A DNA stretch of 13,075 nt from Myxococcales bacterium (GTDB lineage Bacteria > Myxococcota_A > Polyangia > Polyangiales > Polyangiaceae), in assembly GCA_013297655.1 (NCBI GenBank), contig JAAFHV010000255.1:1-13075 (forward strand), given 5' to 3'. Within the stretch, counting starts at the first letter, position 1, and each line of letters opens with the position of its first letter. The notes below the pieces were generated by a model, which worked only from the letters and a program-made list of their open reading frames with translations, ran no database searches and had not been told where the DNA came from. A program made the translations under genes and the position numbers. Positions 2,545-6,543 of the stretch are shown one piece after another.

Positions 2545-3207
2545 TCATTCGTCAGGTCGAGCGGTCGCGGCGGCTTCGGCGAGCGTGACGAGCTCGTCGG
2601 CCTCGAGCCAGGACATGTCGAGGGCGACCCCCTCCGTCGCCGCGCGCTCCGTCGAGAGCTCGACCGCGCAGCATCGCACCGTGTCCCAGAGGTCGTCGCC
2701 GAGGCCGAGCGCTCCCCGATTGAGGCGGAGCCATACGAGCGCGCTCACGTCGCACTGCAGCTCGGTGGCGGCGACCTCCTCGAACGGCCCGTGGGAGTGA
2801 AAATGAGCCCAGTCGTGGAGGCCCCAGTACACGGCCGCGAGGCTCGTCGTCGCGAGAAAAAGGGCGTCGTTCGGGGCGGTGCGGTTCTCGTAGAGCAAGT
2901 CCGTCGCGTCGTCGATCGCCCACGGCGCGAGCATGTCGGCGTCGCGGGCGAGCTCCACCCTCGGAAGATGCAAACTGCAACTTTCGCGCGGGAGGAACGG
3001 GAAGGCGCCGCGGGGGCCTCGGATCACGAAGCCGAGCCCGGGAGGGTTCGAGCTCGTCGGCAGCGTTGGCTCCCCCGCGGCCATGTTCGACGCGTCCGCG
3101 CGGTGCTCCGGGCACCAGCCTAGGGTGGTGCTCTTCGCCCATCCGAACGCGTCGAACACGGACGCGTGCACGATGCACCGAATGGGTGGAACGAACAGCG
3201 CGCGCAC
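2545..3207 (-). CDS. Conserved hypothetical protein (~220 aa, Trp/His-rich; function not recognised)
   Basis: Minus-strand frame has essentially 100% GC3 over long stretches (checked by hand at 2581-2640 and 3085-3207). Its composition has W/F/H/Y typical of real proteins (…AVYWGLHDWAHFHSHGPFEEV…). Stop is TGA at 2545-2547. The 5' end is uncertain between GTG at 3207 and internal ATG at 3084. Confidence 0.55.
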   Translation of the reverse strand: MRALFVPPIRCIVHASVFDAFGWAKSTTLGWCPEHRADASNMAAGEPTLPTSSNPPGLGFVIRGPRGAFPFLPRESCSLHLPRVELARDADMLAPWAIDDATDLLYENRTAPNDALFLATTSLAAVYWGLHDWAHFHSHGPFEEVAATELQCDVSALVWLRLNRGALGLGDDLWDTVRCCAVELSTERAATEGVALDMSWLEADELVTLAEAAATARPDE

Positions 3208-3294
3208 TCCGCCACCGTACCAAAAAGCGAATCGTCGCGAAGGCGTGCGGGCCGGGTGAGCCTTTCATCCTGGCGCCGCGACGGCCCTCGCGCT

Positions 3295-4248
3295 ATGAGC
3301 CCGCCTCGGATGTCGTCGCCGCTGCCCCCAAAGAAGGACGTCGCTCTCGCTCTCCTCGAGCGCTCGAGCGTGTTCGTGTACCTCGATCCGAGGCGCGATG
3401 GTGTGGTCACCCCGCTCGGCTTCAAGAAGGACCCGAAGCTGGTGCTCCAGGTCGGCCTGAACATGGCGGTCGCGATCCCCGACCTCACGTTCGACGACAA
3501 GGGAATGAGCTGCACGCTCAGCTTCTCCCACACCCCGTTCTTCTGCATCATCCCGTGGCACGCCGTCTTCGCGCTCACCGACGAGAGCGGGCAGGGCATC
3601 GTGTGGCCAGACGACGTTCCGCGCGAGCTCGTGGAGGCCCAGGCGCAGGCGCAACGTCGCGCCTCGCTCCGCGTGGTCCGCGACGAGGAAGCCGCGCCCC
3701 CTCCCGAGGCTGCGCCCGCTCCCGTAGAGCAGAAGGCCGAAAAGGCCGAGAAGACCCCCAAGAAGCCGTCGAAGAAGGCGCCCAAGCAGGCGGAAGCTTC
3801 GTCGGAAGCCCCGAAGCGCGCGAAGAAGAGCAACGCGGTCGCCGAGGCCGAAAAGAAGCCCGCGAAGAAGGCCGAGAAGCCGTCGAAGGCCGAGAAGCCC
3901 GCGAAAGCCGAGAAGCCCTCGAAGGCCGAGAAGCCCTCGAAAGCCGCGAAGCCTTCGAAAGCGACACAGGCAAAGCCCGCAAAGGCCGAGACGACGGAGA
4001 AGCCCGCGAAAAACGCGGCCGCGGTGGCCAAGGGGCCTTCGCGCGAGGCGGAGCAGGCACCCAAGCAGCCCGGCCTCTTCGATGCGAACGCGGCACCCAA
4101 GCCTGTCGCCCCGTCGGTGCCGGCGGCTTCGGTCCCGGCGCCTGCGCCGTCGGCGCCGTCTGCTCCGGTGAGCCCGCCCGCCCTTCCGCGGCCCACCGCT
4201 GGAAAGCCGAAGCGCGAGCTCCCGCCTTACCTCCGCGTCGTGAAGTGA
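3295..4248 (+). CDS. sspB: SspB-like ClpXP specificity-enhancing adaptor with a ~200-aa Lys/Ala/Pro/Glu-rich linker and C-terminal ClpX-binding tail ...LRVVK
   Basis: N-terminal 110 aa align position-by-position with E. coli SspB (LTPRRPYLLRAFYEWL.../LPPKKDVALALLERSS...; IVLNIAPRAV/LVLQVGLNMAV; the Y/F..E.G core). The extreme C-terminus LPPYLRVVK* matches the E. coli SspB XB motif RPALRVVK*. ATG at 3295 (alternative ATG 3310), stop TGA at 4246-4248. Confidence 0.8.
   Translation: MSPPRMSSPLPPKKDVALALLERSSVFVYLDPRRDGVVTPLGFKKDPKLVLQVGLNMAVAIPDLTFDDKGMSCTLSFSHTPFFCIIPWHAVFALTDESGQGIVWPDDVPRELVEAQAQAQRRASLRVVRDEEAAPPPEAAPAPVEQKAEKAEKTPKKPSKKAPKQAEASSEAPKRAKKSNAVAEAEKKPAKKAEKPSKAEKPAKAEKPSKAEKPSKAAKPSKATQAKPAKAETTEKPAKNAAAVAKGPSREAEQAPKQPGLFDANAAPKPVAPSVPAASVPAPAPSAPSAPVSPPALPRPTAGKPKRELPPYLRVVK
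3871..3960 (+). repeat. Five tandem 18-bp repeats (GCCGAGAAGCCNTCGAAR) encoding (AEKP[S/A]K)5 inside the sspB linker
   Basis: Read directly: units at 3871-3888, 3889-3906, 3907-3924, 3925-3942 and 3943-3960 differ at 1-3 positions each. The flanking sequence encodes further KKPxK/AKKAEK variants (histone H1/AlgP-like low complexity). Confidence 0.8.
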
Positions 4249-4265
4249 CGCGAAAAAACCGCCGC

Positions 4266-4299
4266 CGCGGTGGCGAAACATGCCGTCGCGGTGGCGAAA
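4266..4299 (+). repeat. 13-bp direct repeat CGCGGTGGCGAAA x2 with 21-bp periodicity, flanking the livM-like ATG
   Basis: Copies at 4266-4278 and 4287-4299. A third, partial GCGAAAAAAC lies at 4250-4259, immediately after the sspB stop. The copies could also pair locally (CGCGG...CCGCG). Candidate regulatory or RNA-structure element between sspB and the transporter genes. Confidence 0.25.
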
Positions 4300-5677
4300 A
4301 CCGCGCCCCGATCGTGCTAAGACCGGCCCTTCGATGATGCCAGCGTCGGGGAAAGGCGTGGCTTCCGTGGGGAAAAAAGCCCGCGAGCCGAGCAAACGGG
4401 GGTGGGCGTTCGCGGCCGCTGCGCTCGTCGTCGTCGTCGTGCTCGAGCTCGGTCTCGAGCGCATGATCCCGGACAGCTCGATTCGTCAGCTTCTCATGCT
4501 GGCGGCCTGCAACGTGCTCGTCGCGCTCTCGCTCAACGTCATCAACGGCATGGCGGGGCAGTTCTCGATTGGGCACGCGGGCTTCGTCGGCCTCGGTGCG
4601 TACACGAGCGCGGTGGTGAGCGCGCACCTCCACGAGGCGATGGGCGGCGGCGAGGTCACGTTCGCGAAGTCGTTCGTCGTGGTGCCGATCGCGCTCCTCG
4701 CGTCGGCGGTCGTCGCGGGCACGTTCGGCTACCTCGTAGGACTGCCGAGCCTGCGCCTCAAGGGCGACTACCTAGCGATCGTGACCCTCGGTTTCGCGGA
4801 GATCTTCCGGCTCCTCATCGCCACGGCGCAGCTCGGCGAAAAAGAGACCATCGGCGAGGCGGCGGCGAAGATAGGCAAAGACGGGGTGGTCGGGCCCTTC
4901 TTTCATATGCTCCAAGTGGGCATTACCAGCCTCGGCGGCCAGAACGGCTACGCGGGCCCGAAGAACCAGGGGCTGCCCCTTTACGCTGGGCCTTTTTGGG
5001 TATTCGGGCTCGCCCTCGTGCTCGGAGTCCTCGCGTATCGATTGAAGTTCTCGGGTTGGGGGCGCGCCCTCAGGGCCCTCCGGGAGGACGAAATCGCGGC
5101 CGCCGCGGTCGGCGTCGATCCAACCCGCTACAAGGTGCGAAGCTTCGTGATCGCGGCGGTAGGCGCCGGAATCGCCGGTGGGCTCATGGCGATGAACCGC
5201 GACGGCACGCCCACGGTGCAACCCGATAATTACAATTTCCAAGCGTCGTTCGACGCGATCACGATGGTGATCCTCGGCGGCTCCGGGAGCGTCACGGGCG
5301 CCGCGATCGGCGGCGTGCTCATCACGTTCACCGTCAAGGCGATCGAGGCCGTTCAGTCGACGCGCGTCGTGCAAGATTTGAAGAGCTCGGTCCCCTGGCT
5401 CGACCTCAACGCGCTCCGCATGATGCTGTATGCCGCGGTCCTCATCGCGCTCATGATCTGGCGCCCGGAGGGTTTGCTCGGCGAGCGCGAGCTGTTTCAA
5501 AAGCAGAAGCTGCGACCGCTGAAGTTGCCAAAGCCATCGCCCGATCACCCGAAGCCAGACGAGCCGGACCGAGCGCCGGCCGCAGCAGCGAACGAGCCCG
5601 CCAAACCGGTCGTCGCAGCGGCGGACGAGCCCGCCAAGTCGGACGGCGACGAGCCCGAGAAGGGGGCACCTCCGTGA
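4280..5677 (+). CDS. livM: Branched-chain amino acid (LivM/UrtC-type) ABC transporter permease with N-terminal basic leader and C-terminal Pro/acidic low-complexity tail
   Basis: Core [29 protein letters not shown] matches the LivM signature (G..S.GHAAF.G.GAY), and the remainder is multi-TM hydrophobic sequence. ATG at 4280, with alternative in-frame ATGs at 4334/4337. The ~60-aa tail [16 protein letters not shown]...[16 protein letters not shown] has imperfect GACGAGCCCGCCAA repeats. Stop TGA 5675-5677 overlaps the next start (GTGA). Confidence 0.8.
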
Positions 5678-6543
5678 GCGATCTCGTCCTCGAGGGGGTC
5701 TCGAAGAGCTTCGGCGGTCTTCGTGCCGTCGCCGATGTCTCGTTCTCGGTGAAAGCGGGCCGCATTTTTGGCCTCATTGGGCCGAACGGCGCCGGCAAGA
5801 CCACCGTGTTCAACCTCGTCACCGGGGTCTACAAACACGACGTCGGGAGCATTCGTTTCGGGAGCACGAACCTGCTCCCGCTCGCTCCGGCGAAGGTGGC
5901 CGAGGTCGGCATCGCGCGAACCTTCCAGAATATCCGCCTCTTCACGCAGCTCACGGTCCTCGAGAACCTGCTCGTCGCCTGCGAGCTGCAAAAGCGGGCC
6001 CACCTCGCCGCCGCGTTCTTCCGCACGAAGGTGCACTACGAGGACGAGGAGCTCATGCACCATCGCGCGATGGAGCTCCTCGAGGTGTTCGGCCTCCAAG
6101 ACGCCGCGGACGAGCCCTCCACCTCGCTCCCGTATGGCAATCAGCGTCGCCTCGAGATCGCGCGCGCGATGATGCTGAAGCCCAAGCTCCTCCTCCTCGA
6201 CGAGCCCGCCGCGGGCATGAACTACGGTGAGGCCGAGGGGCTGAAGACGCAGATTCGCTGGCTCCGCGACAAGTTCGATCTGACGGTGGTGCTCGTCGAG
6301 CACAACATGCAAGTCGTCATGGGCGTCTGCGAAGAGATCCACGTCCTCGACCACGGCGAGACCATCGCGCACGGCACGCCGGCCGAGGTTCAAAACCACC
6401 CGAAGGTGCTCGCGGCTTACCTCGGCGGTGACGACGACGACGACGACGACGACGAGGCCGGCAAGGCTCCGCCTGGGGCAGAGGCCAAAAAAACGGGCCC
6501 TGCGTCGACCGCGACGGCGAAAGACGCGGGGTCCGAGCCGTGA
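5674..6543 (+). CDS. livG: LivG-type ABC transporter ATP-binding protein with C-terminal poly-Asp/Ala-Lys tail
   Basis: Walker [10 protein letters not shown], the LivG-type insert (…[17 protein letters not shown]…), signature region and Walker [13 protein letters not shown] are all present. GTG start at 5674 is preceded by AAGGGGG. The ~38-aa tail [23 protein letters not shown]... lies beyond the conserved ...AYLGG end. Stop TGA 6541-6543 overlaps the livF start. Confidence 0.85.
6430..6453 (+). repeat. (GAC)8 trinucleotide microsatellite encoding Asp8 in the livG tail
   Basis: Read directly: GGT then 8 consecutive GAC codons, then GAG. An in-frame triplet repeat, so length slippage would not shift the frame. 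Confidence 0.9.

Follow-up and report, generated by a model that had tools for sequence, protein, structure and literature searches.

A long, lysine-rich linker in a probable SspB-type ClpXP adaptor from Polyangia

The stretch of DNA analysed here (termed the window: 13,075 nucleotides, positions 1 to 13,075 of contig JAAFHV010000255.1, from an uncultured Myxococcales bacterium of the family Polyangiaceae) contains, at positions 3310-4248 of the forward strand, a gene that, judged by the modelled fold and the C-terminus of its product, appears to encode a genuine but divergent member of the SspB family of ClpXP adaptors, and not a gammaproteobacterial equivalog. The predicted protein consists of an N-terminal substrate-binding domain, a linker of about 180-190 residues that is predicted to be disordered and is rich in lysine, alanine and proline, and a C-terminal ClpX-binding (XB) tail. 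The explanation that is favoured here, with good though not complete confidence, is that this is a ClpXP adaptor with a long disordered tether that is remodelled by replication slippage, and that it is the short conserved islands within this tether, rather than its repeats, that are likely to be functional.

The evidence for this explanation includes a fold match that is exclusive to SspB, a 12-residue tail that is essentially invariant among relatives, and a comparison of linkers across those relatives. The long linker, which a preliminary description made from the letters of the window alone had noted, is not special to this gene; comparison of linker lengths among orthologs identifies it as a clade-wide trait of Polyangia SspB. 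The window gene is thus a typical representative of a hitherto undescribed class of variants, in which a long tether is common to hundreds of related soil myxobacteria. The features of the gene and its immediate surroundings, with the evidence for each in parentheses, are as follows.

3310..4248, forward strand: sspB-like coding sequence, 312 residues plus stop (open reading frame (ORF) list, ortholog N-termini, comparison with the closest relative)
3310..3621, forward strand: SspB-type substrate-binding domain, residues 1-104, with a helix at the N-terminus and then a beta-sandwich (AlphaFold2, Foldseek, profile search)
3622..3672, forward strand: predicted post-domain alpha-helix, residues 105-121, RELVEAQAQAQRRASLR (AlphaFold2)
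3667..3681, forward strand: internal LRVVR (context RRASLRVVRD), XB-like, 17-18 residues past the domain (enrichment at a fixed position relative to shuffles)
3673..4209, forward strand: predicted intrinsically disordered linker, residues 122-300 (full-length AlphaFold2 model; conservation)
3730..4029, forward strand: lysine/alanine/proline/glutamate-rich core of the linker, residues 141-240 (composition: 29 lysines, 12 aspartates plus glutamates, net charge +18)
3874..3963, forward strand: five imperfect in-frame 18-bp units, encoding EKPSKA, EKPAKA, EKPSKA, EKPSKA and AKPSKA (Tandem Repeats Finder, unit comparison)
4030..4209, forward strand: proline/alanine/serine-rich, nearly neutral distal linker, residues 241-300 (composition, net charge +3)
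4066..4083, forward strand: QPGLFD, residues 253-258, beta-clamp-binding-like (conserved island in the window's subclade)
4210..4245, forward strand: C-terminal XB module, KRELPPYLRVVK (conservation; LRVVK common to Escherichia coli SspB)
3260..3299, forward strand: upstream block, about 40 nt in length (alignment with the closest relative, in which it is nearly identical)

Domain, tail and gene boundaries

Curated sequence models match the N-terminal domain at scores below their cut-offs. The Pfam SspB model (PF04386) matches the first ~105 residues with E = 7.7e-5 (23.2 bits; the gathering score of 27 is not reached), and three NCBIfam 'ClpXP protease specificity-enhancing factor' models match with E = 4.7e-7 (29.8 bits, versus a cut-off of 191 for the PRK11798 equivalogs). 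When a profile of the domain only is searched against the PDB, E. coli SspB chains are found at E-values of 0.013-0.04, with SspB accounting for 10 of the 11 top matches. Most orthologs carry a precomputed match to PF04386, and some of them are labelled SspB by NCBI and JGI. At the level of structure the result is sharper: AlphaFold2, given an alignment of 40 sequences, modelled residues 1-125 (mean predicted local distance difference test (pLDDT) score of 86 for the domain), and when this model was compared with the PDB using Foldseek, all of the top 19 matches were to SspB (E-values of 7e-6 to 2e-4, probability 1.00, template-modelling (TM) scores of ~0.6-0.7). These matches span the proteins of E. 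coli, Haemophilus influenzae and Caulobacter and an Agrobacterium homolog; the next match has an E-value of 0.34.

At the other end of the protein, the 12-residue tail KRELPPYLRVVK is essentially invariant both in 120 homologs and in 68 species-representative genomes, with conservative variants (LRVIK, LRIVK and LRLVK) in more distant relatives. The E. coli sspB gene, fetched and translated, ends in RGGRPALRVVK, the terminal LRVVK of which is identical to that of the window protein. (A search of the 25 C-terminal residues against the PDB found no match.) For the XB peptide of E. coli, binding to ClpX's zinc-binding domain has been reported (PMC12373786). The assignment to SspB therefore stands on the combination of an exclusive fold match with an invariant tail. 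This agrees with the preliminary description, which had read the protein as a substrate-binding domain, a tether and a ClpX-binding LRVVK tail; an SspB domain is indeed found at the N-terminus, and the tail is conserved rather than being a chance match.

The reading frame is open from a GTG at 3166 to the stop codon at 4246-4248, so that the frame described previously, ending at 4248, is present; within it, the ORF list gives in-frame ATG codons at 3295 and 3310. In the homolog alignment the N-termini of all close orthologs read MSSPLPPKK(DV), which matches the ATG at 3310, while at locus L001, from the closest relative, a 1-nt indel within otherwise nearly identical DNA puts the equivalent of the ATG at 3295 out of frame. 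On both grounds the gene corresponds to 3310-4248; the GTG at 3166 and the ATG at 3295 are ruled out as starts, and the earlier choice of 3295 was thus an error. Four overlapping ORFs--3066-4337 on the forward strand and 3120-4196, 3265-4464 and 3575-4633 on the reverse strand--are dismissed as high-G+C artefacts (the G+C content of the window is 67%), as homologs were found only for the SspB frame.

The conserved block at 3260-3299, GCCTTTCATCCTGGCGCCGCGACGGCCCTCGCGCTATGAG, lies just 5' of the true start, and the window and L001 diverge further upstream; this pattern of conservation suggests that the block may be a promoter, operator or 5'-leader element of sspB. A consensus scan for promoters gave no sigma-70-like site in the vicinity of the gene. 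Terminator-like matches, all of which are on the opposite strand and within or adjoining G+C-rich coding sequence, were not accepted as real.

The linker and its conserved islands

Directly after the domain, AlphaFold2 predicts a helix (ending at residue 119/121) with pLDDT scores of ~91-94 in the full-length model and of 76-92 in the domain-only model. From residue 122 to residue 300 the full-length model is without secondary structure (pLDDT 41-63), and among 121 homologs no positional conservation was found in the linker. If the conserved WPDDVPRE motif and the KRELPPYLRVVK tail are taken as its limits, which is the convention used here, the linker comprises 193-194 residues, of which 33 (17%) are lysine, 7 arginine, 21 (11%) aspartate or glutamate, 50 (26%) alanine and 34 (18%) proline. 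Its net charge is +19 and its isoelectric point (pI) 10.1, which corresponds to a net charge per residue of +0.10; with its 21 acidic residues it is a polyampholyte. The charge is unevenly distributed: a short, acidic, proline-rich first part (residues 122-140, net charge -4) precedes the lysine-rich core, where the net charge per residue is +0.18. Both the long basic linker between domain and tail and the proline/alanine/serine-rich segment that the preliminary description had noted are thus recovered, the latter as residues 241-300, and the linker as a whole is predicted to be disordered. Lysine makes up 4.1% of the residues in the ten other ORFs of the window, versus 17% in the linker, and the K/(K+R) ratio is 0.36 there versus 0.83 in the linker. 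Because lysine codons are A-rich and the window has a G+C content of 67%, this enrichment opposes the mutational bias.

Relatives of the gene are numerous. A search with the full-length protein returned more than 1,500 homologs of 208-342 residues, many of them from metagenome-assembled genomes (MAGs) of Polyangiaceae; a scan in which each species was represented by a single genome revealed relatives in 275 genomes; and an exhaustive profile search with the domain only yielded 2,940 cluster representatives at E <= 1e-3. The 80 loci that were retrieved all come from MAGs labelled Polyangiaceae, Labilithrix or 'Myxococcales', plus the cultured Labilithrix luteola. Because the list of 120 nearest proteins was ranked using the full-length query, it is biased towards similar linkers; hence the domain-only searches are relied upon here. 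Linker lengths in three samples are as follows.

120 nearest proteins: 88-204 residues, median 140
68 species genomes: 87-280 residues, median 125
85 representatives at 50% identity: 53-412 residues, median 125

Among the sampled family members none has a linker of E. coli length, the minimum being 53 residues. Charge behaves differently from length. The linker is net positive in 67 of the 68 species genomes and, when relatives are grouped by identity to the query domain, in 97-100% of those at 65% or more but in 52-76% of those below 65%. (The list of 120 homologs had suggested that basic linkers are universal in the family, an impression that the domain-only searches corrected.) Judging from these comparisons of sequence, great linker length is a trait of the family as a whole, and the basic, lysine-rich character a trait of the subclade to which the window gene belongs.

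The linker is also the part of the protein that changes most. Between the window protein and its L001 counterpart the domain is 90% and the tail 100% identical, versus 47% for the linker; moreover, the L001 linker has 174 residues instead of 193-194 and lacks the EKPSKA array. This array is genuine and far exceeds chance expectation, yet its units are imperfect: Tandem Repeats Finder reports it with a period of 18 at 3867-3959 (5.2 copies, 89% matches, score 144), and also with a period of 36 (score 157), and the five units differ pairwise by 1-4 nt, mostly at synonymous sites. The 'perfect' repeats of the preliminary description must accordingly be amended. Its further suggestion that such repeats render the length of the linker labile gains indirect support from the shorter, array-free linker of L001 and from the orthologs at large, which were used in place of strains to judge repeat remodelling: Tandem Repeats Finder detects in-frame linker arrays in 17 of 74 orthologous genes, each with a different unit (AKKPAAKKPA..., APVAAPK, DADAG, ASRAAEGEGRD and KGAEKD among them). 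Because these 17 genes bear different arrays, repeat slippage is seen to be a recurrent route of linker remodelling, of which the EKPSKA array is one lineage-specific instance. The exact window protein, with any of three alternative starts, is absent from a collection of 15 billion proteins, and a scan of a single metagenome found no close relative and only one distant relative.

Set within this fast-changing sequence are two short islands of conservation. The first is the internal LRVVR, which resembles the XB tail. The pattern L[RK]xV occurs 17-18 residues after the domain in 68 of 121 homologs, whereas composition-preserving shuffles lead one to expect 3.4 +/- 1.8; the window protein has RRASLRVVRD at this position and many relatives have RxHLRSVG. 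Subclades without the domain-proximal motif often have RKRPxLxAVP or RPVLVAVP in mid-linker, and one or the other pattern is present in 106 of the 121 sequences (6.5 expected). The enrichment, which exceeds 10-fold over shuffled linkers, is also obtained for the far less redundant representatives at 50% identity, where 70 of 109 contain XB-like internal motifs, versus 6.2 expected and at most 13 in any of 300 shuffles; linkers of either charge sign show it. Individual instances, such as RKKPALRAVS, RPSLRAVP, RRPSLKVVS and GPGLRVVE, resemble the E. coli XB sequence GRPALRVVK. These counts were obtained using regular expressions with shuffle controls, which replaced a hidden Markov model (HMM) built from the C-terminal 10-mers; the motif is too short for the latter, which gave linkers a median score of -3.4 versus -6.7 for shuffled sequences, with few scores above 2 bits. 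Engineered fusions that have the XB peptide at an internal position still recruit ClpXP (PMC12373786), and for this reason an internal ClpX site is mechanistically plausible. The internal XB-like motif is a likely candidate for a second, weaker ClpX-docking site.

The second island, QPGLFD, contains the only aromatic residue of the window linker (its phenylalanine); of 302 linkers, just 65 have an aromatic residue. Every one of the eight distinct proteins in the window's subclade has the pattern Q.[GST]LFD, even though their linkers are just 36-47% identical. The motif by which proteins bind the beta-clamp is defined as Q-aliphatic-x-[L/M]-[F/L] (PMC11139829). The orthologs P0003 and P0004 have QVGLF(D), which fits this definition exactly, while the window's QPGLF has proline at position 2. 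As a resemblance to clamp-binding motifs, QPGLFD is a lead and not a finding. (GLFD was also considered as a family-wide motif, but is confined to the window's subclade.) Another subclade has linker islands of its own, namely RKRPHV[AS]LV and, further along, KP[TI]LFKV; these occur in proteins P0009, P0012, P0025, P0026, P0036, P0051, P0061 and P0100 and at loci L028 and L029. As far as the searches reach, both islands of the window protein appear to be previously unreported.

Proposed mechanism and alternatives

Under the favoured explanation, the N-terminal domain would dimerise as in E. coli SspB and capture a degron, as expected from the family; this degron would be the ssrA tag added by transfer-messenger RNA (tmRNA) and possibly also fragments of anti-sigma factors. 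The KRELPPYLRVVK tail, given its identity to the E. coli XB and its near-invariance, would dock on the N-terminal zinc-binding domain of ClpX. The ~180 residues in between would form a disordered, expanded polyampholyte tether, the sequence of which may drift freely while being reshaped by replication slippage of short in-frame repeats, with the EKPSKA array (18 bp x 5) as a presumably recent, lineage-specific product of such slippage. What would be kept are bulk properties: length throughout the Polyangia SspB family, and a net positive, lysine-rich charge in the window's subclade. The likely functional elements of the tether are then the RRASLRVVRD and QPGLFD islands rather than the repeats.

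A polymer estimate suggests that a tether of ~180-190 residues would roughly double the reach of the E. coli protein, and that such a long tether would lower the effective concentration of substrate at the pore about 10-fold. Because of this lowering, a docking site close to the domain would be useful, and the internal XB-like site may serve to offset the loss that a very long leash entails. More speculatively, the positive charge might confer a weak, non-specific affinity for polyanions, such as ribosomes or other RNA, the nucleoid or polyphosphate. E. coli SspB reportedly first came to notice in association with ribosomes.

A number of observations weigh against this explanation. The Pfam and NCBIfam scores of the window protein are below curated cut-offs. 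No clpX, clpP or tmRNA gene was found in the window, and consequently the ClpXP partners and the cognate tag are unseen; nor was any paper on SspB in myxobacteria found in the literature. The patterns used to count internal motifs were written after the data had been seen, and the sequences counted are phylogenetically related. The window's LRVV falls at the end of a helix that AlphaFold2 predicts confidently, and in E. coli the bound XB peptide takes the form of an extended strand. Of the 85 representatives at 50% identity, 33 have linkers that are equally long and have a net charge of zero or below; because related SspBs thus have equally long acidic or neutral linkers, basic charge is not essential to the long-linker design. 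Within the basic group itself there is a charge-reversed exception, locus L072 (Polyangiaceae MAG JAWKRD010000022.1): its linker, the sole strongly acidic one among the 68 species genomes (net charge -20), is built on a (DADAG)n array with a period of 15 and 97% matches. Finally, the tails of the LivM-like and LivG-like proteins encoded next to sspB (see below) suggest a genome-wide tolerance of low-complexity charged extensions.

This last point bears upon the main rival explanation, namely that the linker is a neutral spacer, generated by replication slippage under relaxed constraint, in which length, charge and repeats merely connect the two ends and the basic composition reflects phylogenetic inertia. 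Such an explanation is credible, if on the whole unlikely. It fits a linker that shows no positional conservation, that varies 8-fold in length and flips the sign of its charge in more distant relatives, that uses different repeat units in different lineages, and that has LivM and LivG as neighbours, with their proline/lysine/aspartate-rich tails and poly-aspartate run. It does not readily fit the lack of any sampled member with a short linker (minimum 53 residues, medians 125-140), the enrichment of lysine in opposition to the G+C bias, the maintenance of a net positive charge in 97-100% of the subclade despite a sequence turnover of ~50%, or the conserved short motifs embedded in the linker. 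A quite different doubt concerns the protein as a whole: an SspB fold might have been reused for some other purpose, so that the protein is no ClpXP adaptor and LRVVK is coincidental or put to a different use. The weak match to characterised SspBs (~20% identity, HMM scores below the cut-offs) and the lack of an sspA neighbour, unlike in E. coli, would be consistent with this; yet the fold matches SspB exclusively, the order of domains is that of SspB, the last five residues of the invariant 12-residue tail, at the very C-terminus, are exactly the E. coli XB pentapeptide, and NCBI already names orthologs SspB, all of which renders this possibility highly improbable.

Two further explanations assign the linker a more active role. 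In the first, which is judged rather unlikely and which the preliminary description had raised for the nucleoid and polyphosphate, the linker truly acts as a polyanion-binding module, of the type seen in histone H1 or AlgP, which localises the adaptor, and with it ClpXP delivery, to the nucleoid, to ribosomes or to polyphosphate granules. Its lysine/alanine/proline-rich composition, pI of 10.1 and net charge of +19 are in keeping with this, as is the fact that the orthologs P0005 and P0006 have KPAAKK-type repeats with a precomputed match to the Pfam family HC2 (PF07382, a histone H1-like nucleoprotein); the KPAA tail of AlgP binds DNA and localises to polyphosphate granules (PMC9239181), and a beta-clamp-binding motif, which QPGLFD resembles, would likewise place the protein on DNA. 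Against it are the low charge density (+0.10 per residue, with 11% acidic residues, and a net charge of only +1 for the EKPSKA unit), the lack of any H1, Hc2 or AlgP family match for the window protein itself, and the related SspBs that presumably work with acidic linkers. The second, which is quite unlikely, takes Polyangia SspB to be a multivalent, spatially targeted adaptor with two ClpX-docking sites per subunit, an RPxLRxV-type motif adjoining the domain and the LRVVK at the tip of a ~180-residue leash, the polycationic leash and, in the window's subclade, QxxLFD serving to park it on nucleic acid, the replisome or polyphosphate. If this were true, then the adaptor would focus ClpXP delivery on certain places in the cell, or one dimer would span two or more pairs of ClpX N-domains.

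Genomic surroundings and comparison with known systems

Upstream of sspB is an unannotated 220-residue ORF on the opposite strand (2545-3207); downstream are livM, livG and livF. The same arrangement is found in L001, where synteny with the window extends over a pyrophosphatase, a PNPOx-like gene, sspB, livM/G/F, a gene resembling that for the major vault protein (MVP) and an epimerase. Searches of the window for Rfam families, tRNAs and tmRNA found none. Between the sspB stop codon and the start of the livM-like gene is a 13-nt direct repeat, CGCGGTGGCGAAA, at 4266-4278 and 4287-4299 (21 nt apart). The LivM-like protein (4280-5677) has a low-complexity, charged C-terminal tail rich in proline, lysine, aspartate and glutamate, and the LivG-like protein (5674-6543) a C-terminal run of eight aspartates followed by an alanine/lysine/glycine-rich tail; a perfect GAC repeat of 8.7 copies is located at 6430-6455. 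Further downstream, a 960-residue ORF on the reverse strand (7435-10317) has Pfam matches to families of the major vault protein, namely MVP_shoulder (4.4e-17), Vault_3 and Vault_4; its syntenic counterpart in L001 has 955 residues, and MVP homologs are already known from bacteria (bioRxiv 10.1101/872010). Two reverse-strand ORFs, the 220-residue one already mentioned and one of 381 residues (10550-11695), have no Pfam match, and neither do their L001 counterparts, which are comparable in size and location. A 35-bp tandem duplication (2004-2071; 1.9 copies, 81% matches) lies where no gene is convincing.

Among tethering adaptors for AAA+ proteases, SspB is the textbook case; work on its linker has centred almost wholly on E. 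coli, in which this linker is short and acidic. From this perspective, the Polyangia proteins constitute a large natural family with linkers that are 2-8 times longer, that in one subclade have the opposite charge and that include an extra XB-like motif. They thereby provide a natural experiment on how the length, charge and valency of a tether affect ClpXP delivery, on the localisation of adaptors via disordered regions, and on the speed with which such regions evolve by repeat slippage. Should the linker turn out to be a passive spacer, then the window simply contains a correctly identified, ordinary adaptor gene. Orthologs already carry the SspB label in databases, and long lysine/alanine/proline-rich disordered regions are common in high-G+C bacteria. 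Reviews, on the other hand, describe SspB as restricted to certain proteobacteria (PMC8138137); the comparisons made here extend it firmly into Myxococcota.

As regards composition, the nearest analogs of the linker are the KPAA tails of AlgP and PhaF and the C-terminal domain of histone H1, which are likewise disordered, rich in lysine, alanine and proline, and built of short tandem repeats. In AlgP, the number of KPAA repeats changes by rearrangement; however, AlgP has ~25% lysine, essentially no acidic residues in its repeats and a net charge of +55, versus 17% lysine, 11% aspartate plus glutamate and +19 in the window linker (PMC9239181). Moreover, the AlgP, PhaF and H1 regions are terminal tails, whereas the window linker is an internal tether between two functional modules. 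Pfam and NCBIfam models of the H1-type, Hc2 (PF07382) and AlgP families find no match in the window protein at E <= 1. Thus the epithet 'histone-H1-like', used in the preliminary description, is apt for the lysine/alanine/proline repeat composition but implies neither homology nor a comparable charge density, the latter being much below that of AlgP. With beta-clamp-binding motifs, QPGLFD and the QVGLFD of P0003 and P0004 share the property of being conserved islands in a disordered region; they depart from the usual motifs in that the window has a proline at position 2, which is not aliphatic in the usual sense, and in that they occur in one small subclade.

Among characterised SspBs, the alphaproteobacterial proteins of Caulobacter crescentus (2QAS/2QAZ) and Agrobacterium (AGR_C_3712, 2NYS) are likewise divergent and recognisable mainly by their fold, and they fit the model no less well than the E. 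coli proteins do (Foldseek E-values of ~2e-5, with a similarly low identity of 18-21%); 2NYS is the best single-sequence match in the PDB. The E. coli and H. influenzae proteins (PDB 1OX9, 1OU8 and 8ET3) share with the window protein the same fold (Foldseek E-values of ~1e-5, TM scores of 0.6-0.7), the same layout of domain, disordered linker and C-terminal XB, and an identical terminal LRVVK, with a domain identity of only ~20%. They differ from it chiefly in what lies between domain and tail: the linker of E. coli SspB has ~49 residues and a charge of -17 (protein pI 4.4), while that of the window protein has ~180-193 residues, and is thus ~4 times longer, with a charge of +19 (protein pI 9.8); and the internal XB-like motif and the QPGLFD island are extra in the window protein. 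In E. coli, sspA is immediately upstream of sspB in the same operon, whereas the window sspB stands outside such an operon. Among the loci and genomes compared here, a long lysine-rich linker is seen only in the Polyangia family. The window protein, then, is unlike every characterised SspB in the length of its linker, in the sign of its linker charge, in its internal XB-like motif and in its QxxLFD island.

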